Counted from the first letter of the stretch, positions 31,165 to 39,876 are shown. The stretch is DNA of 64,000 nucleotides from Chloroflexota bacterium (GCA_016875915.1 VGOM01000001.1:32178-96177), one strand, 5' to 3'. The notes: generated by a model not told the origin, from the letters alone. Translations and numbers: made by a program.

Positions 31165-34100
31165 CTACTTGATGGCTGCCCAACTCCTGCCCAACAAGTA
31201 AGCCAAGATCCCGGCCACTGGCAATGCTCCGATACTGCCGACAAAGATCCAGACCCACAAGGGAATGCCTTGCGTGCCCTGTGCTTGGGGGCTGGCTGGG
31301 GCCACCAGGATTGCCCAGGTGCTGAGGTGGGTAGTGGAGGCAGTCAAGGTCACATCGGCCGTGTTGACGACGGTATTGAGGGGCTTCCACTGTTCGGCCT
31401 CTTCGTCCCAGTAGGCCAGGACTAGGTTCTCGGCATTCCCATCCGCTGCAGCGACATCTGCCTCCGAGTACTTGACCGTGATTGTCGTGGGCTGAGACAA
31501 GGTGACGATGTCGTTTCCATCTTCATCCATCGCCACTATGACGAAGCAGGTATCGCCTATCACGAATCCTTCAGGCGCGTCGGGAAGCTGGCAGCCCCGC
31601 TTGCTGTCGATGGTGACTACTGCTGTGCCGGCAACCGCGCCACCGGGAAAGTCCGTGGAGATCTGTCCGTCCGCAGTTTCCATCTTGCCCCCGCCTGGCG
31701 GCAGGATGGCAAGACAGTTCGGCTTGGTATCCTTATCCGTGTTGCCCACAGCATCGGTGAAGGTGAGGCTGACCGTGTACGTGCCCGGGTCCATATAGCG
31801 ATGCCACGGTTCGCGCTCTGTGGCGTCAGTGGTCCCATCATTGTCGAAGTCCCAGGCATAGGTCAGCGGTGAGGCTCCTCCTGTTGACAGGTTGCCGAAG
31901 AAGATCAGCATCACCCCCCCTGAGACCCTTACGGAAGTGACGTCGAATTGAGCCTGTGGCGGGGGTGGGGTAGTGAAGGAAGTCTCAGATGACCAGTCTG
32001 ACCAGACTCCCCGATTGTCCTGATACCGAACCTCCCAGTGGTAGCTGGTTGAGTACGCCAGCGCGCCCAGGGGGACATGGATCTCGGTCAGGTTGGTGGT
32101 GTCTATCCCACTGTCGAAGGCAGGGCTGGAATAGCCTCCGGTGGTTGACCTCATCTGCCATTGAGATGCGGCATGAGTGTCGGCGCTGTCCGGGTCGGAG
32201 AAGGCCGATGCGGTCAGTGTTGGCGCGAGGGTCACCCCTGTCGACGCGTTGGCGGGCGAGGCGTTGGTCGGCTGACTGGGCGGTCGGCTGAAGGTTGTGA
32301 AGGTCGTTTCATCGGAGTAGTCGGACCAATCTCCGTGATTGTCCTGGTGCCGTACCTGCCAGCGGTAGGTCGTTGAGTAGGCCAGCGCCCCTGAAGGGAT
32401 GTCAATGGCGCTGAGGTGCGCGCCGTCAATGCCACTGTCGAGGACGGGGCTGGAATAGTCTCCAGAGACGGACCTTATCTGCCATTGTGAGGCAGCGTGG
32501 GTATTGCCCTGATCCGGGTCGGAGAATACCGAGGACTGCAGTGTTGGCGTCAGAATGACAGCGGTTGCACCGTCAAGCGGTGACATATTGCTTGGCCTAC
32601 TCGGTGGGCGGTTGAGCGTAGTGAATGAGGTCTCTAGAGAGTAGCCAGACCAGTTGCCGTGACTGTCCTGATGCCGTACGCGCCAATAGTACGTGGTCGA
32701 GTAGTCCAGTGTTTCTGGGGGTATGGCAATGCCTGTGAGGTTCGCGGTGTCTCTCCCGCTGTCGAAGACCGAGATCGAGTAGTCGTTAGGAGTCAAGGTG
32801 ATCTGCCACCGGGAGGCGGAGTGCGTGTCACTGGGGTTCGGATCGTCGAAGGCCGAGGACTGCAGCATTGGCGCTGGGCTGACGCCGGTTGTCGCGTTGG
32901 CCGGCGAAGTATTGGCCGGGTTGTTGGGAGCAGCCCCTCCAGCGTAATGAAGGATGGCTCCATCGCTGCCCACGGCGAATACGTGATAACCCGAACTGCC
33001 CCAGACATCAGAAAGACCCCGGTTGGTGCTAGTGGTCATTGTGCTCCAGGTGGTGCCGTCGTAGTGCCAGATTCCGCCTTCCCCCAAGCCGAAGATATCG
33101 GTGTCGGAATTGACCCAGGCGCCAACGATCCCAGGCATACTGTCGCTGGGCATCTCGGTCCACGTGCTGCCATCGTAGTGCATGATGATGTCACGGTGTT
33201 CGGAGTAGTAGTACCCCGAAGCGAAGACGTCGGCAGGAGAAATGCCCCAGACAGTATCGAGCGCTACCCTGATGCCGCTAGCCATGGTGCTCCAGGCAGA
33301 CCCATCATAGTGCATGATGATTTCCGCATAGGGCACGCTCGAGCCCTCATAGTAGGCGATACCCACGGCGAAGACATCAGAGGAAGAGGTGCCCCAGACG
33401 GCCCTGAAGCCAGCCGTGATGCCTGTGTTCATCAGGCTCCATGTACTGCCATCGTAGTGGAGAATGCCGCCTTCAATCACGGGGCCATGGTTACCGGGGG
33501 CCACGGCAAAGATGTCCGTGGCCGAGCTTCCCCAGATACCCAGGAGTGGACCCAGGGACGGGTCCGTAATGTCGCTAGCCACCTCGACCCAGGACTCACC
33601 GTCATAATGAAGGATGATGGGGTTGGCATCGCCCTCAACTACGGTTCCACCAACGGCATACACATCGCTTGGAGAGCTGCCCCAGACATCCCAAAGATAC
33701 TCCGATGTGCCACTGTCCATGGGGCTCCAGGCGCTCCCATCGTAGTGAACGATCGTGCCCTCATCAAAAGGGAAGTAGTGACCGCCCACGGCAAACACGT
33801 CAGCGGCAGAACTCCCCCAGACTCCAGAGAGATTGTTCGATGTCGCGACGCTGCTCATGGGGCTCCATTCACTGCCGTCGTAGTGCCAGATATTGCCGGC
33901 ATATCCGACGGCGAACACATCGGTGGCGGAACTGCCCCAGATGTCGCTGAACTCATCGTCCGTGTACATGGTGCCCCAAGCCGAACCGTCGTACCGCATG
34001 ATTGCGCCTTCGACAACCTCGGATCCACCCCCGGGTCCGTCCCAACGGCCCCCCACTGCGAAGAGGTGGCTCGCGGAAGCGCCCCAGATGCCATTGAAGA

Positions 34101-34893
34101 GGTGCTGTACCTCACTGCGCACGAGGATCCATTGAGCGCCATCGTAGTGCAGGACCACGCCATCCCCCTCGACTGGGCCTGGGCTCACTTTACCACCAAC
34201 GGCGTAGACATCGCTGGGAGACCCGCCCCAGACTCCTTTGAGAGTATTCGTCACACCAGCATCCATCACGGACCAGGCGCTGCCGTCATAGTGCATGACA
34301 ATACCGGCACCTCCCACAGCGAATACCTCCGTGGGAGATGTACCCCAGACGCCTTGAAGGTGCTTTGCGGTGGGGGTGGTCATCTGGCTCCAATCGCTGC
34401 CATCGTAGTGCAGGACGATACCTTCCCCTTCGTACAGGGACCCTCCCACAGCGAAGACATCGCTGGGTGAGCTGCTCCAGACTCCCCAGAGTTGCTCCGT
34501 GGTACCGCTGCTCATGGGACTCCATTCACCTCCATCATATTGCAGGATGGTGCCATTCTCTCCTACAGCGAACACTTCATTGGGAGAGTTGCCCCAGACA
34601 TCCCAGAGGTCATCCGTAGTGCCGCTGGTAGCGGGACTCCATTCGCTGCCATCGTAATGAAGGATGGTGCCGTACTCCCCCACTGCAAAGACGTTGGATG
34701 AAGACGTGCCCCAAACGCCATTGAGGGACTGTCCCTGCGGCAAGGGGTTCTGCCACTTCCAGCCGTCCGCGCCCGTGAAAGGCTCAACAGACGCACCAAG
34801 GCTCGCGCTGCCTGCAACCAGTGGGCAAATGGTTGAGGCCGCAAGTGATGTGAGGACGATGACGATGAGTGAGCGCTTCAGCATATGGCACAT
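31165..34893 (-). CDS. large secreted/surface-anchored repeat protein: signal peptide, 14 beta-propeller blade repeats, 3 FN3-like repeats, PKD domain, C-terminal TM anchor
   Basis: 1242-aa ORF. It has a hydrophobic N-terminus (LIVIVLTSLAAS), 14 units of the pattern G[VI]WG.S..DVFAVG..G.I.HYDGS.WS, three units of about 105 aa ending Y.W.VR.QD..G.WS..S.E.SFTT, a PKD motif WDFDNDGTTD, and a C-terminal helix IPLWVWIFVGSIGALPVAGILAYLL followed by basic residues. Confidence 0.88.
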   Translation of the reverse strand: MCHMLKRSLIVIVLTSLAASTICPLVAGSASLGASVEPFTGADGWKWQNPLPQGQSLNGVWGTSSSNVFAVGEYGTILHYDGSEWSPATSGTTDDLWDVWGNSPNEVFAVGENGTILQYDGGEWSPMSSGTTEQLWGVWSSSPSDVFAVGGSLYEGEGIVLHYDGSDWSQMTTPTAKHLQGVWGTSPTEVFAVGGAGIVMHYDGSAWSVMDAGVTNTLKGVWGGSPSDVYAVGGKVSPGPVEGDGVVLHYDGAQWILVRSEVQHLFNGIWGASASHLFAVGGRWDGPGGGSEVVEGAIMRYDGSAWGTMYTDDEFSDIWGSSATDVFAVGYAGNIWHYDGSEWSPMSSVATSNNLSGVWGSSAADVFAVGGHYFPFDEGTIVHYDGSAWSPMDSGTSEYLWDVWGSSPSDVYAVGGTVVEGDANPIILHYDGESWVEVASDITDPSLGPLLGIWGSSATDIFAVAPGNHGPVIEGGILHYDGSTWSLMNTGITAGFRAVWGTSSSDVFAVGIAYYEGSSVPYAEIIMHYDGSAWSTMASGIRVALDTVWGISPADVFASGYYYSEHRDIIMHYDGSTWTEMPSDSMPGIVGAWVNSDTDIFGLGEGGIWHYDGTTWSTMTTSTNRGLSDVWGSSGYHVFAVGSDGAILHYAGGAAPNNPANTSPANATTGVSPAPMLQSSAFDDPNPSDTHSASRWQITLTPNDYSISVFDSGRDTANLTGIAIPPETLDYSTTYYWRVRHQDSHGNWSGYSLETSFTTLNRPPSRPSNMSPLDGATAVILTPTLQSSVFSDPDQGNTHAASQWQIRSVSGDYSSPVLDSGIDGAHLSAIDIPSGALAYSTTYRWQVRHQDNHGDWSDYSDETTFTTFSRPPSQPTNASPANASTGVTLAPTLTASAFSDPDSADTHAASQWQMRSTTGGYSSPAFDSGIDTTNLTEIHVPLGALAYSTSYHWEVRYQDNRGVWSDWSSETSFTTPPPPQAQFDVTSVRVSGGVMLIFFGNLSTGGASPLTYAWDFDNDGTTDATEREPWHRYMDPGTYTVSLTFTDAVGNTDKDTKPNCLAILPPGGGKMETADGQISTDFPGGAVAGTAVVTIDSKRGCQLPDAPEGFVIGDTCFVIVAMDEDGNDIVTLSQPTTITVKYSEADVAAADGNAENLVLAYWDEEAEQWKPLNTVVNTADVTLTASTTHLSTWAILVAPASPQAQGTQGIPLWVWIFVGSIGALPVAGILAYLLGRSWAAIK
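31702..31959 (-). other. PKD domain coding segment
   Basis: aa about 979-1064: PLTYAWDFDNDGTTD ... GTYTVSLTFTDAVGN. Confidence 0.7.
31969..32922 (-). repeat. three tandem ~105-aa FN3-like coding repeats
   Basis: aa about 658-975. Shared features are SP.(N/D).(A/T)T.V.L.P.L..S.F.DPD...TH.AS.WQ... and ...YSTTY.W.VR.QD..G.WS. Confidence 0.7.
32941..34725 (-). repeat. 14 tandem ~40-50-aa propeller-blade coding repeats (two predicted 7-bladed propellers, Ycf48/BNR-like)
   Basis: I counted the blades in the translation (aa about 57-651). Every unit keeps WG...(D/N)(V/I)(F/Y)AVG and HYDG..W. Confidence 0.75.
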
Positions 34894-35008: not shown

Positions 35009-35076
35009 CTGCTGGACGGCGGAAGGCGCTGGAGCACAGTGACAGCGCTGAGTGACATCCGCAGAACGTCCAGCAG
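35009..35076 (-). terminator. long compound hairpin (10-bp outer stem CTGCTGGACG/CGTCCAGCAG, inner 6-bp stem GCGCTG/CAGCGC) just downstream of the nuclease cassette
   Basis: Outer arms lie at 35009-35018 and 35067-35076, inner arms at 35026-35031 and 35043-35048. It starts 12 nt after the stop at 35088. There is no U-tract. Confidence 0.4.
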
Positions 35077-35087
35077 ATCGTCAATAG

Positions 35088-35651
35088 CTAGGTCACCTCC
35101 GACTTGGGGAGATCATGGAGTGATACAAGAAGACAAGATAGGTCCGGCAGAGGCTGAAAAGAGACGGCCAGTTCGTCCTCGGAATAGCCCGACCGCAGGT
35201 CGTTGGTCACGGCTTCCTCAAGTTGTTGGAGTTCGCCGGCGGTGATAGGGGACCAATCGGGGTGTGATACCCAGATTCGATGATATCCGGCTACTTGGAA
35301 GTCGTCCAAGGGATGATTGTGGAGGTCAGCCAGGTCCAGGGTCCGCAGCCCGGCATCGACAAGGATCCGAGCGAAGGCTTTGCCACACAAGTCGAGGGTG
35401 AACGCATAGCGCGCATCCGGGGCCAGGGACGGGTTGTACCTCTGCATTCGAAGCGAGAAGTCGGAGGGCTGTCCGTCAACAATGGCATAGGCTACGATGG
35501 CTTGGACCACACGAATGGTGCCCTCCAGCAGCAGCTTGGGCTTGTCCAGCAGACCCAGGCGCCACATATGTTGGCGAAAGAGAGCATAGTCGTCAGCACG
35601 GGCTGCAGCCCGAAATTGCCGTTCCCACAGGTTGAGTGCGTGGCTCACCAT
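35088..35651 (-). CDS. hypothetical protein (cassette gene 4, no recognisable motif)
   Basis: 187 aa from the ATG at 35651, which overlaps the stop of the upstream gene (ATGGTGA). The longer ORF to 35714 would overlap by 70 nt. Confidence 0.6.
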   Translation of the reverse strand: MVSHALNLWERQFRAAARADDYALFRQHMWRLGLLDKPKLLLEGTIRVVQAIVAYAIVDGQPSDFSLRMQRYNPSLAPDARYAFTLDLCGKAFARILVDAGLRTLDLADLHNHPLDDFQVAGYHRIWVSHPDWSPITAGELQQLEEAVTNDLRSGYSEDELAVSFQPLPDLSCLLVSLHDLPKSEVT

Positions 35652-36412
35652 GTGGCGCCTCCGCATGGCGGGGATGTGGGGCAGGGCCAGACTTCGACGT
35701 GGCTGGTGATCCACATGCCGGTGAAGGTATCGGGAGGCACAGTCCGCTTGAGGTGTTCCGCCAGCAGCTGCCGGAACAGCGTACGCACCGGCTCGACATT
35801 GGCACCAGGAGCCAGATGTGAGTTGTCAAGAAGGAGCACCATGCCGCACCGGGCAAAGGGCCGGGGATAATGGCCGGGCTGCGGACTCAAGGCAGCGGCA
35901 ACCTTCTTCACCGCCTGGACTGCGACAAGCGCCGCCTGCGAGATTGACCTGGCTCGCCTGGGATTGCCGAGGTCTCGATAGAGCTTGATTTCGATGACGG
36001 TGTCGAGAAACGGAAGACAAAGGGTGGGCAGAGCCCTGATAAAGACACCGAAGTCCTGTGAACGAACCGCTTCCAGCGATATCCCAGTAGTCGATGAGGC
36101 GTTCAAGACCACAACGTCGAAGTGCCCTCTCCTCCCGCTGCGGTCTGCCGGCCCCAGAACCTTAAACGAGCTCTCCTTCATGCCGCAACGGAAGGGTGTG
36201 GGATACTCTCCGTGAACGGCCGACGTGGGCGTACCGCCAGAGACAGTAACGGTGGACTCACCAAGCTGAGCCAGACCTGTGTCAATGTCCTTGATCAGCC
36301 GCCACCTGATGTCTTCCTCGCTGAAATACCGTGCCGGAGATGTCAGGAAGTCCTCAGTCAGGCGAGCGACAGCGGCATTGACGATGTCAGCAATACTCAC
36401 GGCACTCTGCAT
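35645..36412 (-). CDS. hypothetical protein with PD-(D/E)xK-like nuclease motif (cassette gene 3)
   Basis: 255 aa. Candidate catalytic constellation E69 (HGEYP) ... D99 (GHFDVVVL) ... E141-x-K143 (VIEIKL). Its start overlaps the upstream gene by 26 nt. Confidence 0.65.
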   Translation of the reverse strand: MQSAVSIADIVNAAVARLTEDFLTSPARYFSEEDIRWRLIKDIDTGLAQLGESTVTVSGGTPTSAVHGEYPTPFRCGMKESSFKVLGPADRSGRRGHFDVVVLNASSTTGISLEAVRSQDFGVFIRALPTLCLPFLDTVIEIKLYRDLGNPRRARSISQAALVAVQAVKKVAAALSPQPGHYPRPFARCGMVLLLDNSHLAPGANVEPVRTLFRQLLAEHLKRTVPPDTFTGMWITSHVEVWPCPTSPPCGGATW

Positions 36413-37373
36413 CTTCTCTCGCCCTCCTGCCCATCCGCTTCTTCAGCTGGTCCAGTGTCAGCATGCAATCGGTATGCATGCCATATCCAGCGAAGTGGGC
36501 TACAAAGAAGCGCAAGTCGAAGGGCGAAGCACGACTCTCGAAACCCCGCATCCTCCGGTCCTCCAGGATCTCGGTCAGCACTCCGCTGCGTGGATTGAGA
36601 TTCGCGAGCACAAGGATCACCTCCAGTCTTTCCTTGAGCTCGATCTTGGTCACTCTCGCACTGCGCCTGAATTTGAGCAAGCCGAGTTCGTCAAGTTGAC
36701 GGAACTGATCCTCGGCGGCCTTCCTCAACTGGCGACACTTGTCCTCGTCGCGAGCTAGTCTCTCCATGTCATGCAAGTGCTCCAACACCCCAGACTCGCC
36801 TTTGAGGGCATCATCGCCATATTTCATCTCGATCAGCGCTGCTTGGCAACCTCTTCCGTGTTTGCGGGCGTCGGCTGGCCAGCGCAGCGCTAGCATGTCA
36901 AACCGGGCGCCAATGGAAGGGTCCGCCACTTCGATATCCGTGACGAAATACTCAGTTGCCACTGAGATGGTGGAGCAGTTGTTCTCCCGCGCTGCCAACT
37001 GCTGGAATTCACGCTCCGGCTTGCGTTTCGTTTGGAAGTGAGTGTCCATGATTTGCTTGAGTCGAGGAAAGGCATCAACCCAGCGTTGCGCATCTTTCCT
37101 CGTAACAATCTTGCCTGGCGGTCTGGGAAGAAGCCGTGGGGATTCAGCGTATTTCTTGTCAAAGAACGCTTCATAGGAACGAATTGAGTCGGTGGCAGGT
37201 CCTGTGATTCTCATGAGGTTGCCGCCCCTGTAGTAGACATTGACGTAGGTCCCCCGAAGAGCCAGCAGTAGAGTGTCATCCATTCTGACTCTCTCGAGCA
37301 CCGGCATCAGCGATCCGCTCATGAGATCGCTCATGAAATCTTTGGGCAGTTCTCTCGAGATCCCCGTTGTCAC
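36387..37373 (-). CDS. hypothetical protein with PD-(D/E)xK / RecB-like nuclease motif (cassette gene 2)
   Basis: 328 aa. GTG start 4 nt after an AAAGGAGG SD. Candidate motifs are E120/E122 (EREFQQ), D159 (ARFDMLAL) and E182-x-K184 (LIEMKYG). The C-terminal third is helical and basic. Confidence 0.7.
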   Translation of the reverse strand: MTTGISRELPKDFMSDLMSGSLMPVLERVRMDDTLLLALRGTYVNVYYRGGNLMRITGPATDSIRSYEAFFDKKYAESPRLLPRPPGKIVTRKDAQRWVDAFPRLKQIMDTHFQTKRKPEREFQQLAARENNCSTISVATEYFVTDIEVADPSIGARFDMLALRWPADARKHGRGCQAALIEMKYGDDALKGESGVLEHLHDMERLARDEDKCRQLRKAAEDQFRQLDELGLLKFRRSARVTKIELKERLEVILVLANLNPRSGVLTEILEDRRMRGFESRASPFDLRFFVAHFAGYGMHTDCMLTLDQLKKRMGRRAREDAECREYC

Positions 37374-37560
37374 CCAACCTCCTTTGTTGTGTGCATCTAC
37401 GCTCTCTCGATAGGGTGAGTACCTATGAACTGCTCCGGGCCGGCCATCCAGGCAGGCCCTGGGCTCGGCACTTCCGCAATCAGGCTAGCTGATAGCCGTC
37501 GACGATGAGGCTGTCCGGTCATGTCCCTGTGCTATCTCTTCAGTCCTTCCTGGGGCTCCG

Positions 37561-38862
37561 CTACACCGTCATCTCCTCGCCATCTGCAAGCTGGATGGCA
37601 GTGGGAAAGAGCCGGAGGAATTCGCCCGGGCTGAACGTGTGGATGGGAATGACATGACGGGGTTTGAGAGCGAATACCAACTGACTGAGATTCTCGACGT
37701 AGGCGTGTCCGCTGGTGTGGATCTCTGCCAACTCGACATGGCGAGATTCCAGAACCTTTGTCAGATTCGAACGCTCGAGGTAGCCGGGCCACATCGAGTA
37801 GACCGCCCTGGCCCCAGTGGGAGGACCCAGTTTCGGAAGCATGACTGTTCGGAAGTAGCGGTTGTCTTTGGCGAGGACTACCATTTCCTGCGCGCGACGC
37901 CTTATCTCTTCCCACTCAATCTTGGCCTTCTTGTAGGTGAACAGCAGCTGCCTGTCGTACCCAGCGATTCTCTGGGCATGAGAATAACCGTAGAGCACCC
38001 GGACTCCTTGCCAGTGGAATTGAGGAATGTTGTCTGACAACGTACTCAGTTTGTCCAGCACAAAGGCGGTATACAGATCGATAACCACGACCTTCCCGTG
38101 TCGCTTGGCTGCCCGATAGACCGACACAAGCCTATCCAGATTCTGAGACGAGCAGAAGACAAAGGTGTAGGAACGCTGGTCGGCTAGCAGGCTGCCTATG
38201 GCGTTCTCCACCGCCTTCTCGTCCGGATAGAGTCCCTCATGCCTGCCAATCATGGTACCTTCCATGATCAGGCAGTCCACACCTGGGATAGGGTCTGCCA
38301 GAAGTCTCCTCAGCAGTACGGACTTCCGCCCATGGCCACGGAAATCACCAGTGTAGAAGACCTTCTTCCCCTCTGCCTCGATGAGGAACGCAGCAGCGTC
38401 GGGTGCTGAATGATCCATGAGATAGGGAGTGATCGTGAATTCACCCACCTGGAACGGCTGCCACATGGTGAAGGTCTGGACTTGGTCGAGATTGACCCTC
38501 GCATCCAGAAACAGGTTTGAGACCTCGATGATACTGCTTGTTCCTGGGCTCATGTATACGGGAATTGCCGAATGTAGGAAGCGGAGAAACCCGTAGTGAT
38601 CCTGATGACTATGTGACAATATGACGGCGGAGACTGAGACTTGTTGGTGTGGATACATCCCGCGGACTCCGGGGAGTATCCCCTGGCCCAAGAGTTCTCT
38701 AGCAGAGGACCGCCTATGGTCCTGCCACTCAAAAGGCGATCCATCCGGAGTCACCAGCGGCACTCCAACGTCAACAACGATGCGTGTCTTGCAAGTCTGG
38801 GAGTAGAGCTCAACACAGCTCCCGCCAACTTCATGTGTGCCGCGATGGATGATGAGCTTCAT
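37561..38862 (-). CDS. metallo-beta-lactamase-fold hydrolase, beta-CASP-like (nuclease family; cassette gene 1)
   Basis: 433 aa. MBL motifs HSHQDH (aa 84-89), H151 (MDHSAPD), D173 (YTGDFR), E201 (IMEGT, beta-CASP motif-A-like), HTSGHA (aa 382-387) and IPIHT (aa 405-409). Confidence 0.85.
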   Translation of the reverse strand: MKLIIHRGTHEVGGSCVELYSQTCKTRIVVDVGVPLVTPDGSPFEWQDHRRSSARELLGQGILPGVRGMYPHQQVSVSAVILSHSHQDHYGFLRFLHSAIPVYMSPGTSSIIEVSNLFLDARVNLDQVQTFTMWQPFQVGEFTITPYLMDHSAPDAAAFLIEAEGKKVFYTGDFRGHGRKSVLLRRLLADPIPGVDCLIMEGTMIGRHEGLYPDEKAVENAIGSLLADQRSYTFVFCSSQNLDRLVSVYRAAKRHGKVVVIDLYTAFVLDKLSTLSDNIPQFHWQGVRVLYGYSHAQRIAGYDRQLLFTYKKAKIEWEEIRRRAQEMVVLAKDNRYFRTVMLPKLGPPTGARAVYSMWPGYLERSNLTKVLESRHVELAEIHTSGHAYVENLSQLVFALKPRHVIPIHTFSPGEFLRLFPTAIQLADGEEMTV

Positions 38863-38957: not shown

Positions 38958-39346
38958 CTAGCGCGGTTGCCTTGGCCGGATGACTTCCACCGTCTCGCCC
39001 CGCCCAAGTGTCCAGGCAAGAAGCTCCACTGCCTCCGCGACCTTCAACGTCATCATTGCCGAGCCATCTCTCGACTTCTTCAGCACTTGTGATGGGTGGT
39101 ATGCGGTTTCTTCCCTTGTCCGTGCGATTGAGGGGGCAAACCTCAACTTTGGCCGTAATGCCCAAGACGAACCGAGGAACTCGTTGGCATCGAACTTGGG
39201 CGGCAAAGGACATTGCGTGGAGCTTGGCTGAATAGCCTTGACAGGCTCCATCTTGCTCCAATATGGTGACCGGCGCTCCTTGCGGGGGGGTTGAGTGCTG
39301 AGAAGATGACCCTGCTGTCCAGGTCCCGTGGCCTAGCTCCTGACAC
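38958..39346 (-). pseudogene. possible decayed PIN/VapC-like toxin gene downstream of the AbrB-type gene
   Basis: A GTG at 39346 overlaps the AbrB-type gene's stop by 14 nt. It opens with a PIN-like N-terminus (RDLDSRVIFSALNPP), then the reading frame breaks into 67-aa and 97-aa pieces in different frames. This is very tentative. Confidence 0.25.
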
Positions 39347-39620
39347 AGTAGCGCTCCCTGGCCACCTCCTGCCCTACACGATGGCCTGCCTTCTGGTCCT
39401 GCTCCTCGGCTAACCCGGAACGCTGGAAAGTCTGCTGAATCTCTCTCAGGGATTCAAGAACCACGATCTTCCTGGGTCTGGCCAGGATTGCGGAATCCTT
39501 CACGGTCATCTCGAGCACCTGACCGGGGCCGATGCCCAGTTGGCCACATATCTCGTCCCTGGGAAGAGTGACCTGGCGTTTGGGACGGAGGATTGCGGCG
39601 GATGCCTTCTTGCACACCAT
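39333..39620 (-). CDS. AbrB/MazE/SpoVT-family DNA-binding protein (antitoxin-like)
   Basis: The swapped-hairpin motif KRQVTLPRDEICGQLGIGPGQVLEMTVKDSAILARP lies near the N-terminus when started at the ATG 39620. The ORF is open to 39671. Confidence 0.7.
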   Translation of the reverse strand: MVCKKASAAILRPKRQVTLPRDEICGQLGIGPGQVLEMTVKDSAILARPRKIVVLESLREIQQTFQRSGLAEEQDQKAGHRVGQEVARERYCVRS

Positions 39621-39876
39621 AGGGCACGTCCTGCAGTAGGTCGGATATCGGGCTTCATTCCTGCCTGTCATTGTCCGAGATCGAACACGGACGAGTCAAG
39701 GGGGGGATTGAGGATTGTGTCTGCTTCTCGAGCTTCAGCCTTGATGTGGATGGAGTGGTGGTGTGGGAGGGTAGTGGAGATGGGGCGGCACCCTGGATGG
39801 GCCGAACACAGGCGGAATGGCAGAAGGGCGTGCGCCTGTGGCGGGATGGGGTCTGAATCTTGAAGGGGGCTGGGGG

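Follow-up and report, generated by a model that had tools for sequence, protein, structure and literature searches.

The DNA considered here is a stretch of 64,000 nucleotides (nt) from a Chloroflexota bacterium (GCA_016875915.1 VGOM01000001.1:32178-96177), which is called the window below and within which positions are counted. It carries, between 35088 and 38862 on the minus strand, four intact open reading frames (ORFs), designated g1, g2, g3 and g4 in the direction of transcription. Comparison with other genomes indicates that g1-g2-g3 is one subtype of a recurrent, widespread and horizontally mobile nuclease module, of which g1, a β-CASP metallo-β-lactamase (MBL), and g2, a predicted PD-(D/E)xK-type nuclease, constitute the core and g3, a second predicted PD-(D/E)xK-fold protein, is an optional component. 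The fourth gene is, by its own distribution, a passenger. The nuclease module is apparently previously undescribed, and its genomic surroundings suggest, with about an even chance, that it serves in immunity against foreign nucleic acid, in a restriction-like or abortive manner.

Linkage of the Module Genes in Other Genomes

A pattern scan for g2 gave 83 matches among 185,579 species representatives; 80 species-level loci, obtained by the g2 profile from one genome per species, were compared, and 77 were assessed for an MBL gene. The g2 homologues inspected first were each found directly after a gene for an MBL of ~415 amino acids (aa), and their other neighbours were all different. In the species-level loci, an MBL gene lies near g2 in ~60 of 77 (~78%), and all-against-all clustering of 944 ORFs from the 80 loci gave two recurrent families only: g2 itself, with 78 loci, and the MBL, with 59; no other family is present in more than 5 loci. 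The MBL gene is located immediately upstream of g2 in ~48 loci, usually with its stop codon abutting the g2 start, immediately downstream in 4 and at a distance of 0.3-2.8 kb in 5.

Fusion ORFs of ~740 aa, found at four metagenome loci (L100, L108, L110 and L113) and each followed by a g3 homologue (Table 1), are direct evidence of joint action of the MBL and g2. The N-terminal MBL part of the fusions is 58-63% identical to g1 and is continued in frame by a C-terminal g2-like domain, which aligns with g2 over its full length at 26-31% identity and keeps the ExE, D and ExK residues. The closest analogue of the window is L178, where an MBL 63% identical to g1 and a separate g2 (55% identical) stand beside AbiEi/AbiEii. 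In addition, g3 homologues directly follow the MBL gene in two-gene loci without g2. Upstream of such MBL-g3 pairs a conserved YhcG-like PD-(D/E)xK gene is often present; at L007, L098 and L115 it (YhcG_C-like, ~240 aa, 60-64% identical among the three loci) directly precedes the pair, and therefore the MBL-g3 subtype, too, comprises three nuclease-like genes, the third being another one. The MBL subtypes and the partner subtypes diverge in parallel, that is, g1 is 58-63% identical to the MBL part of the fusions and to the MBL of L178, 48-52% identical to the g3-paired MBLs and 32-39% identical to the MBLs beside typical g2. The idea that the window is a hybrid, in which a foreign g2 was inserted into an MBL-g3 pair, was considered and rejected on the basis of L178 and the fusion loci.

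Three independent nuclease-like genes might have come to lie side by side by coincidence, because ~16 of the 77 assessable g2 loci are without an MBL gene (several of these carry a frameshifted g2) and the distant g3-like proteins (24-34% identity) have neither a conserved partner nor, by profile search, an MBL. However, this is extremely improbable in view of the fusion proteins, of an adjacency that recurs in unrelated genomes and of MBL and partner subtypes that diverge in parallel, and the fusion ORFs effectively refute it. The adjacency in other genomes, together with the MBL-g2 fusion in some of them, indicates that g1, g2 and g3 are functionally linked. An earlier note on this DNA, made from the sequence alone, had treated all four genes as one nuclease-rich cassette and had asked for conserved co-occurrence as a check: g1-g2 (and g1-g3) are indeed linked in other genomes, while g4 is not. 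The linkage of g2 and g3 with g1 is borne out by their adjacency and by the loci in which the fusion is followed by g3.

The β-CASP Metallo-β-lactamase (g1)

The product of g1 matches the Pfam family Lactamase_B_2 (3.8e-17, 63 bits, cutoff 27), and residues 379-409 resemble the RMMBL segment at slightly below the cutoff (3.7e-4, 20.9 bits against 21.6). Among proteins in the PDB its sequence matches EF2904 (2az4, 1.4e-13), ribonuclease J (RNase J, to 2e-12), CPSF73 (1e-6) and Apollo/SNM1B (1e-5), the alignment with RNase J extending over residues 62-262. In an alignment of 54 homologues, drawn from the loci fetched in this analysis, H84-x-H86-x-D88-H89, H151, D173, D243, H386 (in HTSGHA) and H408 (in IPIHT) are invariant; an insert of ~190 residues separates D173 from H386, and E201, E215 and E219 are also invariant. 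The metal-site set that had been read from the single sequence is thus present in all 54 homologues, and the inserted domain read there is borne out for g1. By these motifs, g1 is a β-CASP MBL nuclease with the complete MBL and β-CASP motif set and a histidine at motif C. According to the rule that relates motif C to RNA or DNA cleavage, a histidine at this position is characteristic of the RNA-cleaving β-CASP branch.

The protein is not an RNase J, scoring 75.9 bits against a cutoff of 400 (TIGR00649) and 60.4 against 820 (NF047419), and only the N-terminal ~250 of 546 positions of the RNase J profile are matched. It is not Cas14 (27.9 bits against a cutoff of 800 for the NCBIfam model), and the ComEC model matches it over 30 residues only (E 6.6e-3).

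The 433-aa ORF of g1 is intact and aligns with its homologues from residue 1 (H6, R7, G13 and G14 are invariant). The public gene calls of the copies on two metagenome contigs are N-terminally truncated (L180:7755-8852, 365 aa; L181:7860-8852, 330 aa), and therefore the database copies of g1 miss part of the MBL domain.

The Predicted Nucleases (g2 and g3)

A word-indexed search gave 1142 homologues of g2, and a profile search among 1.84 billion representatives gave 1610 clusters at 50% identity with E<=1e-3, 516 of them with E<=1e-30. Neither the single sequence nor the family profile of g2 has a match in Pfam, NCBIfam, PHROG or the PDB sequences, and the sole PADLOC match is a weak one to a Type I specificity subunit (E 0.019). 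In 44 homologues E120, E122, D146, E148, D159, E182 and K184 are invariant, as is the motif YxNxYYRGG in the N-terminal domain, which is β-rich and comprises about residues 1-90. The AlphaFold2 model (predicted local distance difference test, pLDDT, 86) has a core in the order α-β-β-β-α-β, in which E120 and E122 are placed where helix 121-132 begins; strand 156-164 contains D159, and strand 176-185 contains E182-x-K184. On this basis g2 is predicted to be a PD-(D/E)xK-type nuclease.

For g3 there are 45 close homologues and 205 metagenome loci, and again no match of the single sequence or the family profile in Pfam, NCBIfam, PHROG, PADLOC or the PDB sequences. All of 44 homologues have E32, E33, E69, D99 and E141, and at least 90% of them have K143. 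The AlphaFold2 model (pLDDT 91) has the same α-β-β-β-α-β core, in which E32 and E33 belong to helix 32-49; strand 94-103 carries D99, and strand 136-145 carries E141-x-K143. The top Foldseek matches in the PDB are NucC (8.9e-3, probability 0.75), SfsA, BstEII, Cas4 SSO0001 and OkrAI. A PD-(D/E)xK fold is therefore predicted for g3 by its motif and model.

The earlier note had named E120/E122, D159 and E182-x-K184 in g2 and E69, D99 and E141-x-K143 in g3 as residues spaced like PD-(D/E)xK active sites. Its residues in g2 proved invariant without exception; in g3 this holds for the acidic residues, K143 being the one that is highly conserved rather than invariant. The fold that it proposed agrees with the motifs and the model topologies, and Foldseek gave weak support for g3 and very weak support for g2. 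As judged from the intact residues in the sequences and, for g2 and g3, their placement in the models, g1, g2 and g3 are probably all catalytically competent. The note had named an assignment of g2, g3 and g4 to well-known non-nuclease housekeeping families as an outcome that would speak against it; the profile searches with all three and the structure searches with g2 and g3 gave no such assignment.

The relation of g2 and g3 as distant paralogues was considered and rejected, since hhalign gave a probability of 0.1% and no relation is detectable. Some members of the g2 family carry additional domains: P0253 (515 aa) has a C-terminal RNase_T (DEDDh) exonuclease domain, P0286 (525 aa) an N-terminal DUF6508, and P0003 (473 aa) a C-terminal extension of ~155 aa, which has no Pfam match and contains a GIY-YIG-looking stretch, GVYVLTV…VYAGK. 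The homologue fused to RNase_T fits an "endonuclease plus exonuclease" logic.

The Passenger Gene (g4)

The g4 family has 82 homologues of ~190 aa, among them those of L011-L014 and L023:285-842, with the conserved motifs DLADLYGxPW and VTxDLRFDYxEDE. The ORF in the window can be extended to a GTG at 35714, yet the homologues begin at the ATG. The C-terminus of most of them is an acidic tail; that of the window copy, ...HDLPKSEVT, shows no marked acidity. Searches with g4 and its homologues gave no match in Pfam, NCBIfam, PHROG, PADLOC or PDB, except for a DUF6117 domain fused to one homologue.

In the window, 26 nt are shared by g2 and g3 and 7 nt (ATGGTGA) by g3 and g4, a single hairpin follows g4, and the identical arrangement is present on three other contigs from the same organism. 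From such features it could be supposed, as the earlier note did for g2, g3 and g4, that the products form a stoichiometric complex, which would then comprise all four genes. This is very unlikely in view of the other genomes, where g4 homologues are solitary genes, each with an upstream spacer of its own (L011-L014), where g4 is found in 0 of 80 g3 loci and in 1 of 80 g2 loci, non-adjacent there, and where the gene downstream of g3 is different in every other locus. For these reasons the g3-g4 overlap is considered to reflect local co-transcription and no conserved partnership. The grouping g2-g3-g4, drawn from translational coupling, thus gives way to g1-g2(-g3) as the partnership conserved in evolution, and g4 is, as far as its occurrence tells, an unrelated passenger, co-transcribed here by chance. 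Stand-alone g4 genes elsewhere have HEPN_AbiV, ParE/HTH and transposase genes as neighbours. A role of the g4 family in immunity or in an anti-restriction-like function is only a guess.

Organization of the Locus and Its Surroundings

The coordinates of the features are given in Table 1. The four same-strand genes had been placed in the part of the window with the lowest guanine + cytosine (G + C) content, and both coordinates and content agree with this: the bins of 36-39 kb have values of 0.557-0.575, the minimum of the window, and the remaining bins are at least 0.589 (0.59-0.70). Homologues were found for each of g1-g4, so none of the four is a chance ORF. The two overlaps, the Shine-Dalgarno (SD) sequence of g2 and the 68-nt hairpin that the earlier note had listed are all present. 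The SD sequence, AAAGGAGG, sits 6 nt ahead of the GTG start of g2. The hairpin has a minimum free energy of -36.1 kcal/mol (z -2.5), none of 200 shuffled sequences being as stable; a U tract is absent, and the hairpin is a possible terminator or 3' stabilizer. The spacer between g1 and g2 gave no match in an Rfam search, and its fold is not unusual (z +0.6). A remnant of a second MBL, of the 415-aa type, in this spacer was considered and rejected: one 17-residue tblastn match (E 0.53) falls at the expected spot, and a C-terminal MBL profile gave nothing.

Table 1. Features of the locus in the window and related ORFs at other loci (L numbers).
Feature	Position	Strand	Size	Description
g1	37561..38862	-	433 aa	β-CASP MBL nuclease by its motifs, EF2904/RNase-J-like subtype; conserved core component
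g1-g2 spacer	37374..37560	-	187 nt	Ends in the g2 SD sequence AAAGGAGG
g2	36387..37373	-	328 aa	GTG start; uncharacterized family, predicted PD-(D/E)xK core; conserved MBL partner
g3	35645..36412	-	255 aa	Predicted PD-(D/E)xK fold; optional third component
g4	35088..35651	-	187 aa	Unknown family; outside the conserved module
Compound hairpin	35009..35076	-	68 nt	12 nt past the g4 stop
WCX-domain fragment	38958..39251	-	97 aa	C-terminal piece of a WYL-type regulator only
AbrB/MazE-like ORF	39333..39671	-	112 aa	Antitoxin-type; no adjoining toxin gene
MBL::g2' fusion, L100	953-3172		~740 aa	g3 homologue follows
MBL::g2' fusion, L108	3258-5483		~740 aa	g3 homologue follows
MBL::g2' fusion, L110	326-2569		~740 aa	g3 homologue follows
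MBL::g2' fusion, L113	3742-5967		~740 aa	g3 homologue follows
YhcG_C-like gene, L007	4982-5704		~240 aa	Directly precedes MBL-g3 pair
YhcG_C-like gene, L098	149-892		~240 aa	Directly precedes MBL-g3 pair
YhcG_C-like gene, L115	3868-4665		~240 aa	Directly precedes MBL-g3 pair

The same four-gene island is present at 99.97% identity on three metagenome contigs (L180-L182) from the same organism with identical housekeeping flanks. In the window it lies between an extracytoplasmic function (ECF) sigma/anti-sigma pair and, at the other end, a PKD-repeat surface protein with the rib operon, and a search for integration signatures around it gave neither a tRNA gene nor flanking direct (att-like) repeats. 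Upstream of g1 are found a WCX-domain fragment (Pfam WCX 7.7e-9, PADLOC WYL 7.6e-8) and an AbrB/MazE-like ORF (Pfam MazE_antitoxin 1.2e-3); no full-length WYL gene could be reconstructed from the sequence upstream of g1. The two look like decayed remnants of a regulator and of a toxin-antitoxin (TA) system, so that the description of a TA remnant beside the cassette was reasonable. Between them lies a poly-C tract (~39284-39290), which is C7 in the window and C9 in L180-L182. The difference could be an assembly error or reflect a slippage-prone tract, and it restores no longer gene. Directly downstream of the island, a 1242-aa secreted or anchored protein, unrelated to the module, is encoded at 31165-34893 on the minus strand, with many propeller-like YDGSxWS repeats, three repeats of ~110 aa and PKD domains.

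Distribution, Mobility and Neighbourhoods

The g2 loci belong to Chloroflexota, Desulfobacterota, Planctomycetota, Bacteroidota, Bradyrhizobium, Shewanella and Saccharibacteria among the bacteria and to Bathyarchaeota, Crenarchaeota and Nanoarchaeota among the archaea, and the identity of g2 is ~45-55% throughout these taxa. As seen from these loci, the distribution of the module is patchy, extends across domains and is due to horizontal spread. The MBL gene or g2 is frameshifted or truncated in L020, L026, L029, L035, L040, L050, L059, L077, L084, L089, L090, L092 and L179, and such frequent decay is as expected of dispensable accessory genes. The low G + C content of the island in the window is a further sign of mobility.

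Many of the neighbours are genes of defence or mobility. L001 is an integrative-element-like region with a PLD-SNF2-Eco57I fusion, Fic, ArdC and an integrase; in L004 the neighbours are ParE-antitoxin, PIN and PDDEXK_4 genes; and L006 is a dense island with a YprA-like helicase, a Cas4-like nuclease, ScoMcrA-HNH, GIY-YIG, a NERD helicase and WYL-RNase_T. A solo g2 stands directly downstream of HsdR or GmrSD in L018 and L041. In 42 loci the module is flanked by 134 ORFs, among whose Pfam and PADLOC matches integrases, Type I and Type II restriction enzymes, IetA, BnzA, HEC-06 and PDC-S27 recur; integrases and transposases rank with the most frequent neighbours. The island-like context that the earlier note described is supported to this extent: the family is patchy, horizontally spread and partly located in defence islands.

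The frequency of integrases and transposases, the integrative-element-like L001 with its ArdC and integrase, the adjacent TA genes in L004 and L178 and the antitoxin-like ORF in the window could also be explained if the module were a selfish or addiction element or a weapon between elements, for example a nuclease toxin with its controller, an entry-exclusion system or an anti-defence system. However, both partners retain intact catalytic sites, and in some lineages they form one polypeptide, as a toxin and its antitoxin seldom do. Moreover, no member of the family was found among 72,556 plasmids and 50,697 phage genomes, and of 2.9 million viral contigs only 3 have g2 and none has g3 or g4, although environmental anaerobes, in which the family occurs, are under-represented in these collections. 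The module is thus considered quite unlikely to play a selfish or inter-element role.

Comparison with Known Systems

EF2904, RNase J and CPSF73 are like g1 in their fold, in HxHxDH and the following H and D, and in the β-CASP motifs A, B and C with a histidine at motif C, and EF2904 (429 aa) is also of similar size. Unlike RNase J, g1 is without the C-terminal dimerization domain, and its distribution is patchy and accessory. The structure of EF2904 had been solved by 2005. To our knowledge, none of EF2904, RNase J and CPSF73 is paired or fused with a PD-(D/E)xK protein. EF2904 is listed as a hypothetical protein of unassigned function (PMC3095777).

MBL-fold immune effectors are known in two settings. 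The first comprises the HamM/trypsin-MBL modules of Hachiman, AVAST, Lamassu and DRT, which are ComEC-like proenzymes (PMC12799240, PMC12642450, PMC13069673), the MBL proenzyme being activated by a fused trypsin-like protease (PMC12799240, PMC12642450). As in the module described here, an MBL nuclease gene stands immediately upstream of a coupled partner and the pair spreads as a module; the MBLs of those systems, however, are ComEC-like, while that of the module is of the β-CASP type and is accompanied by no protease, helicase or STAND ATPase. No protease domain was found in the partner genes g2 and g3 by sequence and profile searches. The second setting is Cas14 of type VII CRISPR-Cas, an RNase-J-like β-CASP protein which requires Cas5/Cas7 and CRISPR RNA (crRNA) (PMC10910872, PMC13069675). 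The β-CASP fold is common to Cas14 and the module, but the module is without cas genes or a CRISPR array: the region 34.6-40.1 kb of the window contains no repeat array, and the flanking ORFs include no cas gene. Besides Cas14, no β-CASP immune effector is documented in the literature searched.

On the side of the partners, NucC, Type II and Type IV restriction enzymes and the Upx dual nuclease (PMC13099982) have, like g2 and g3, the E…D…ExK pattern on an α-β-β-β-α-β core. They differ in that no sequence relation is detectable, in that the module has no cyclic-nucleotide signalling partner or methyltransferase, and in that the partner here is a β-CASP enzyme. The view that the layout is unlike those of catalogued defence systems agrees with the search of PADLOC-DB v2.0.0, in which no model matches g1, g3 or g4 and g2 has only the match at E 0.019. 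A published pair of a β-CASP/MBL protein and a PD-(D/E)xK protein was not found in the literature, subscription-only journals lying outside the search.

Proposed Role of the Module

We infer complex formation, a division of labour, the substrate and a defence role of the module from the data above, and immunity against foreign nucleic acid is the role that we put forward, at even chances. More specifically, and here we would lean slightly against our own proposal, the module may represent a CRISPR-independent immune family in which a β-CASP effector is obligately partnered or fused with a new PD-(D/E)xK family bearing a novel N-terminal recognition domain, in which g3 or RNase_T is swappable and which has spread horizontally across many phyla. 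In such a system g2, alone or with g3, would recognize and cut foreign nucleic acid, binding it via its aromatic-rich N-terminal domain and cleaving it via the PD-(D/E)xK core. The β-CASP enzyme g1 would then degrade the product, starting at the 5' end created by this cut or making additional endonucleolytic cuts, and g3 would contribute another cut or a layer of regulation. β-CASP nucleases such as RNase J and SNM1 are typically 5'-to-3' exonucleases and endonucleases which act on 5'-monophosphate ends.

A number of observations weigh against this proposal. The defence role is deduced from genomic context only, no PADLOC v2 model matches, and many loci have housekeeping neighbours such as haem and radical-SAM genes (L009), acyl-CoA genes (L007), purA, IMPDH and dnaE. 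In the window no recognized intact defence gene adjoins the module, the only neighbours of this kind being the WCX fragment and the antitoxin-like ORF, and the 187-nt gap between g1 and g2 contrasts with most other genomes, where the MBL stop codon abuts the g2 start. The module has no component for discrimination between self and non-self, neither a methyltransferase nor a sensor ATPase. The target of g1 may be RNA and not DNA, because the histidine at motif C and the near-threshold RMMBL segment place it on the RNase J/CPSF73-like branch. The structural matches of the partners are weak as well: the Foldseek nuclease matches of g3 are all of the restriction-endonuclease fold, the best at about E 9e-3; g2 has nothing under E 0.2 in the PDB (MspJI is at rank 33), and in BFVD its best match is phage G gp54 (4.5e-3), with scattered weak matches to herpesvirus UL24 proteins. 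The UL24 proteins are presumably of the PD-(D/E)xK fold.

Some of these points are shared by the reading that the module is a non-immune processing or repair unit, engaged in RNA turnover or maturation like RNase J or in the treatment of damaged DNA ends like SNM1/Artemis. The MBL is closest to RNase J and CPSF73 and keeps the motif C histidine and an RMMBL-like segment, several loci lie amid metabolic or housekeeping genes, and the module is without any immunity-specific domain. A unit of this kind is nevertheless unlikely, though it deserves to be kept in mind, because the module is extremely patchy (83 matches in 185,579 species representatives) with ~50% identity across phyla and domains, because pseudogenes are frequent and the neighbourhoods variable with recurring integrases, TA and restriction genes, and because membership of RNase J fails (75.9 bits against 400). 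Immunity by a partnership of β-CASP and PD-(D/E)xK nucleases is the preferred reading. With 2.3-3.1 kb the module is small; it is also self-contained and occurs in bacteria as well as in archaea, which makes it straightforward to clone and test.

Significance

Were the module shown to act in immunity, this would be the first β-CASP-based defence outside type VII CRISPR. Functions would then be given to two sizeable protein families without a Pfam entry, g2 (~1,600 clusters at 50% identity) and g3, and a biological role might be assigned to the EF2904-type β-CASP proteins. The module would also be another case of modular nuclease shuffling, in which the partners are separate, fused or combined with different exonucleases. 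Furthermore, if it does not serve in immunity, the fusion evidence would still define a new two-enzyme complex for nucleic-acid processing.

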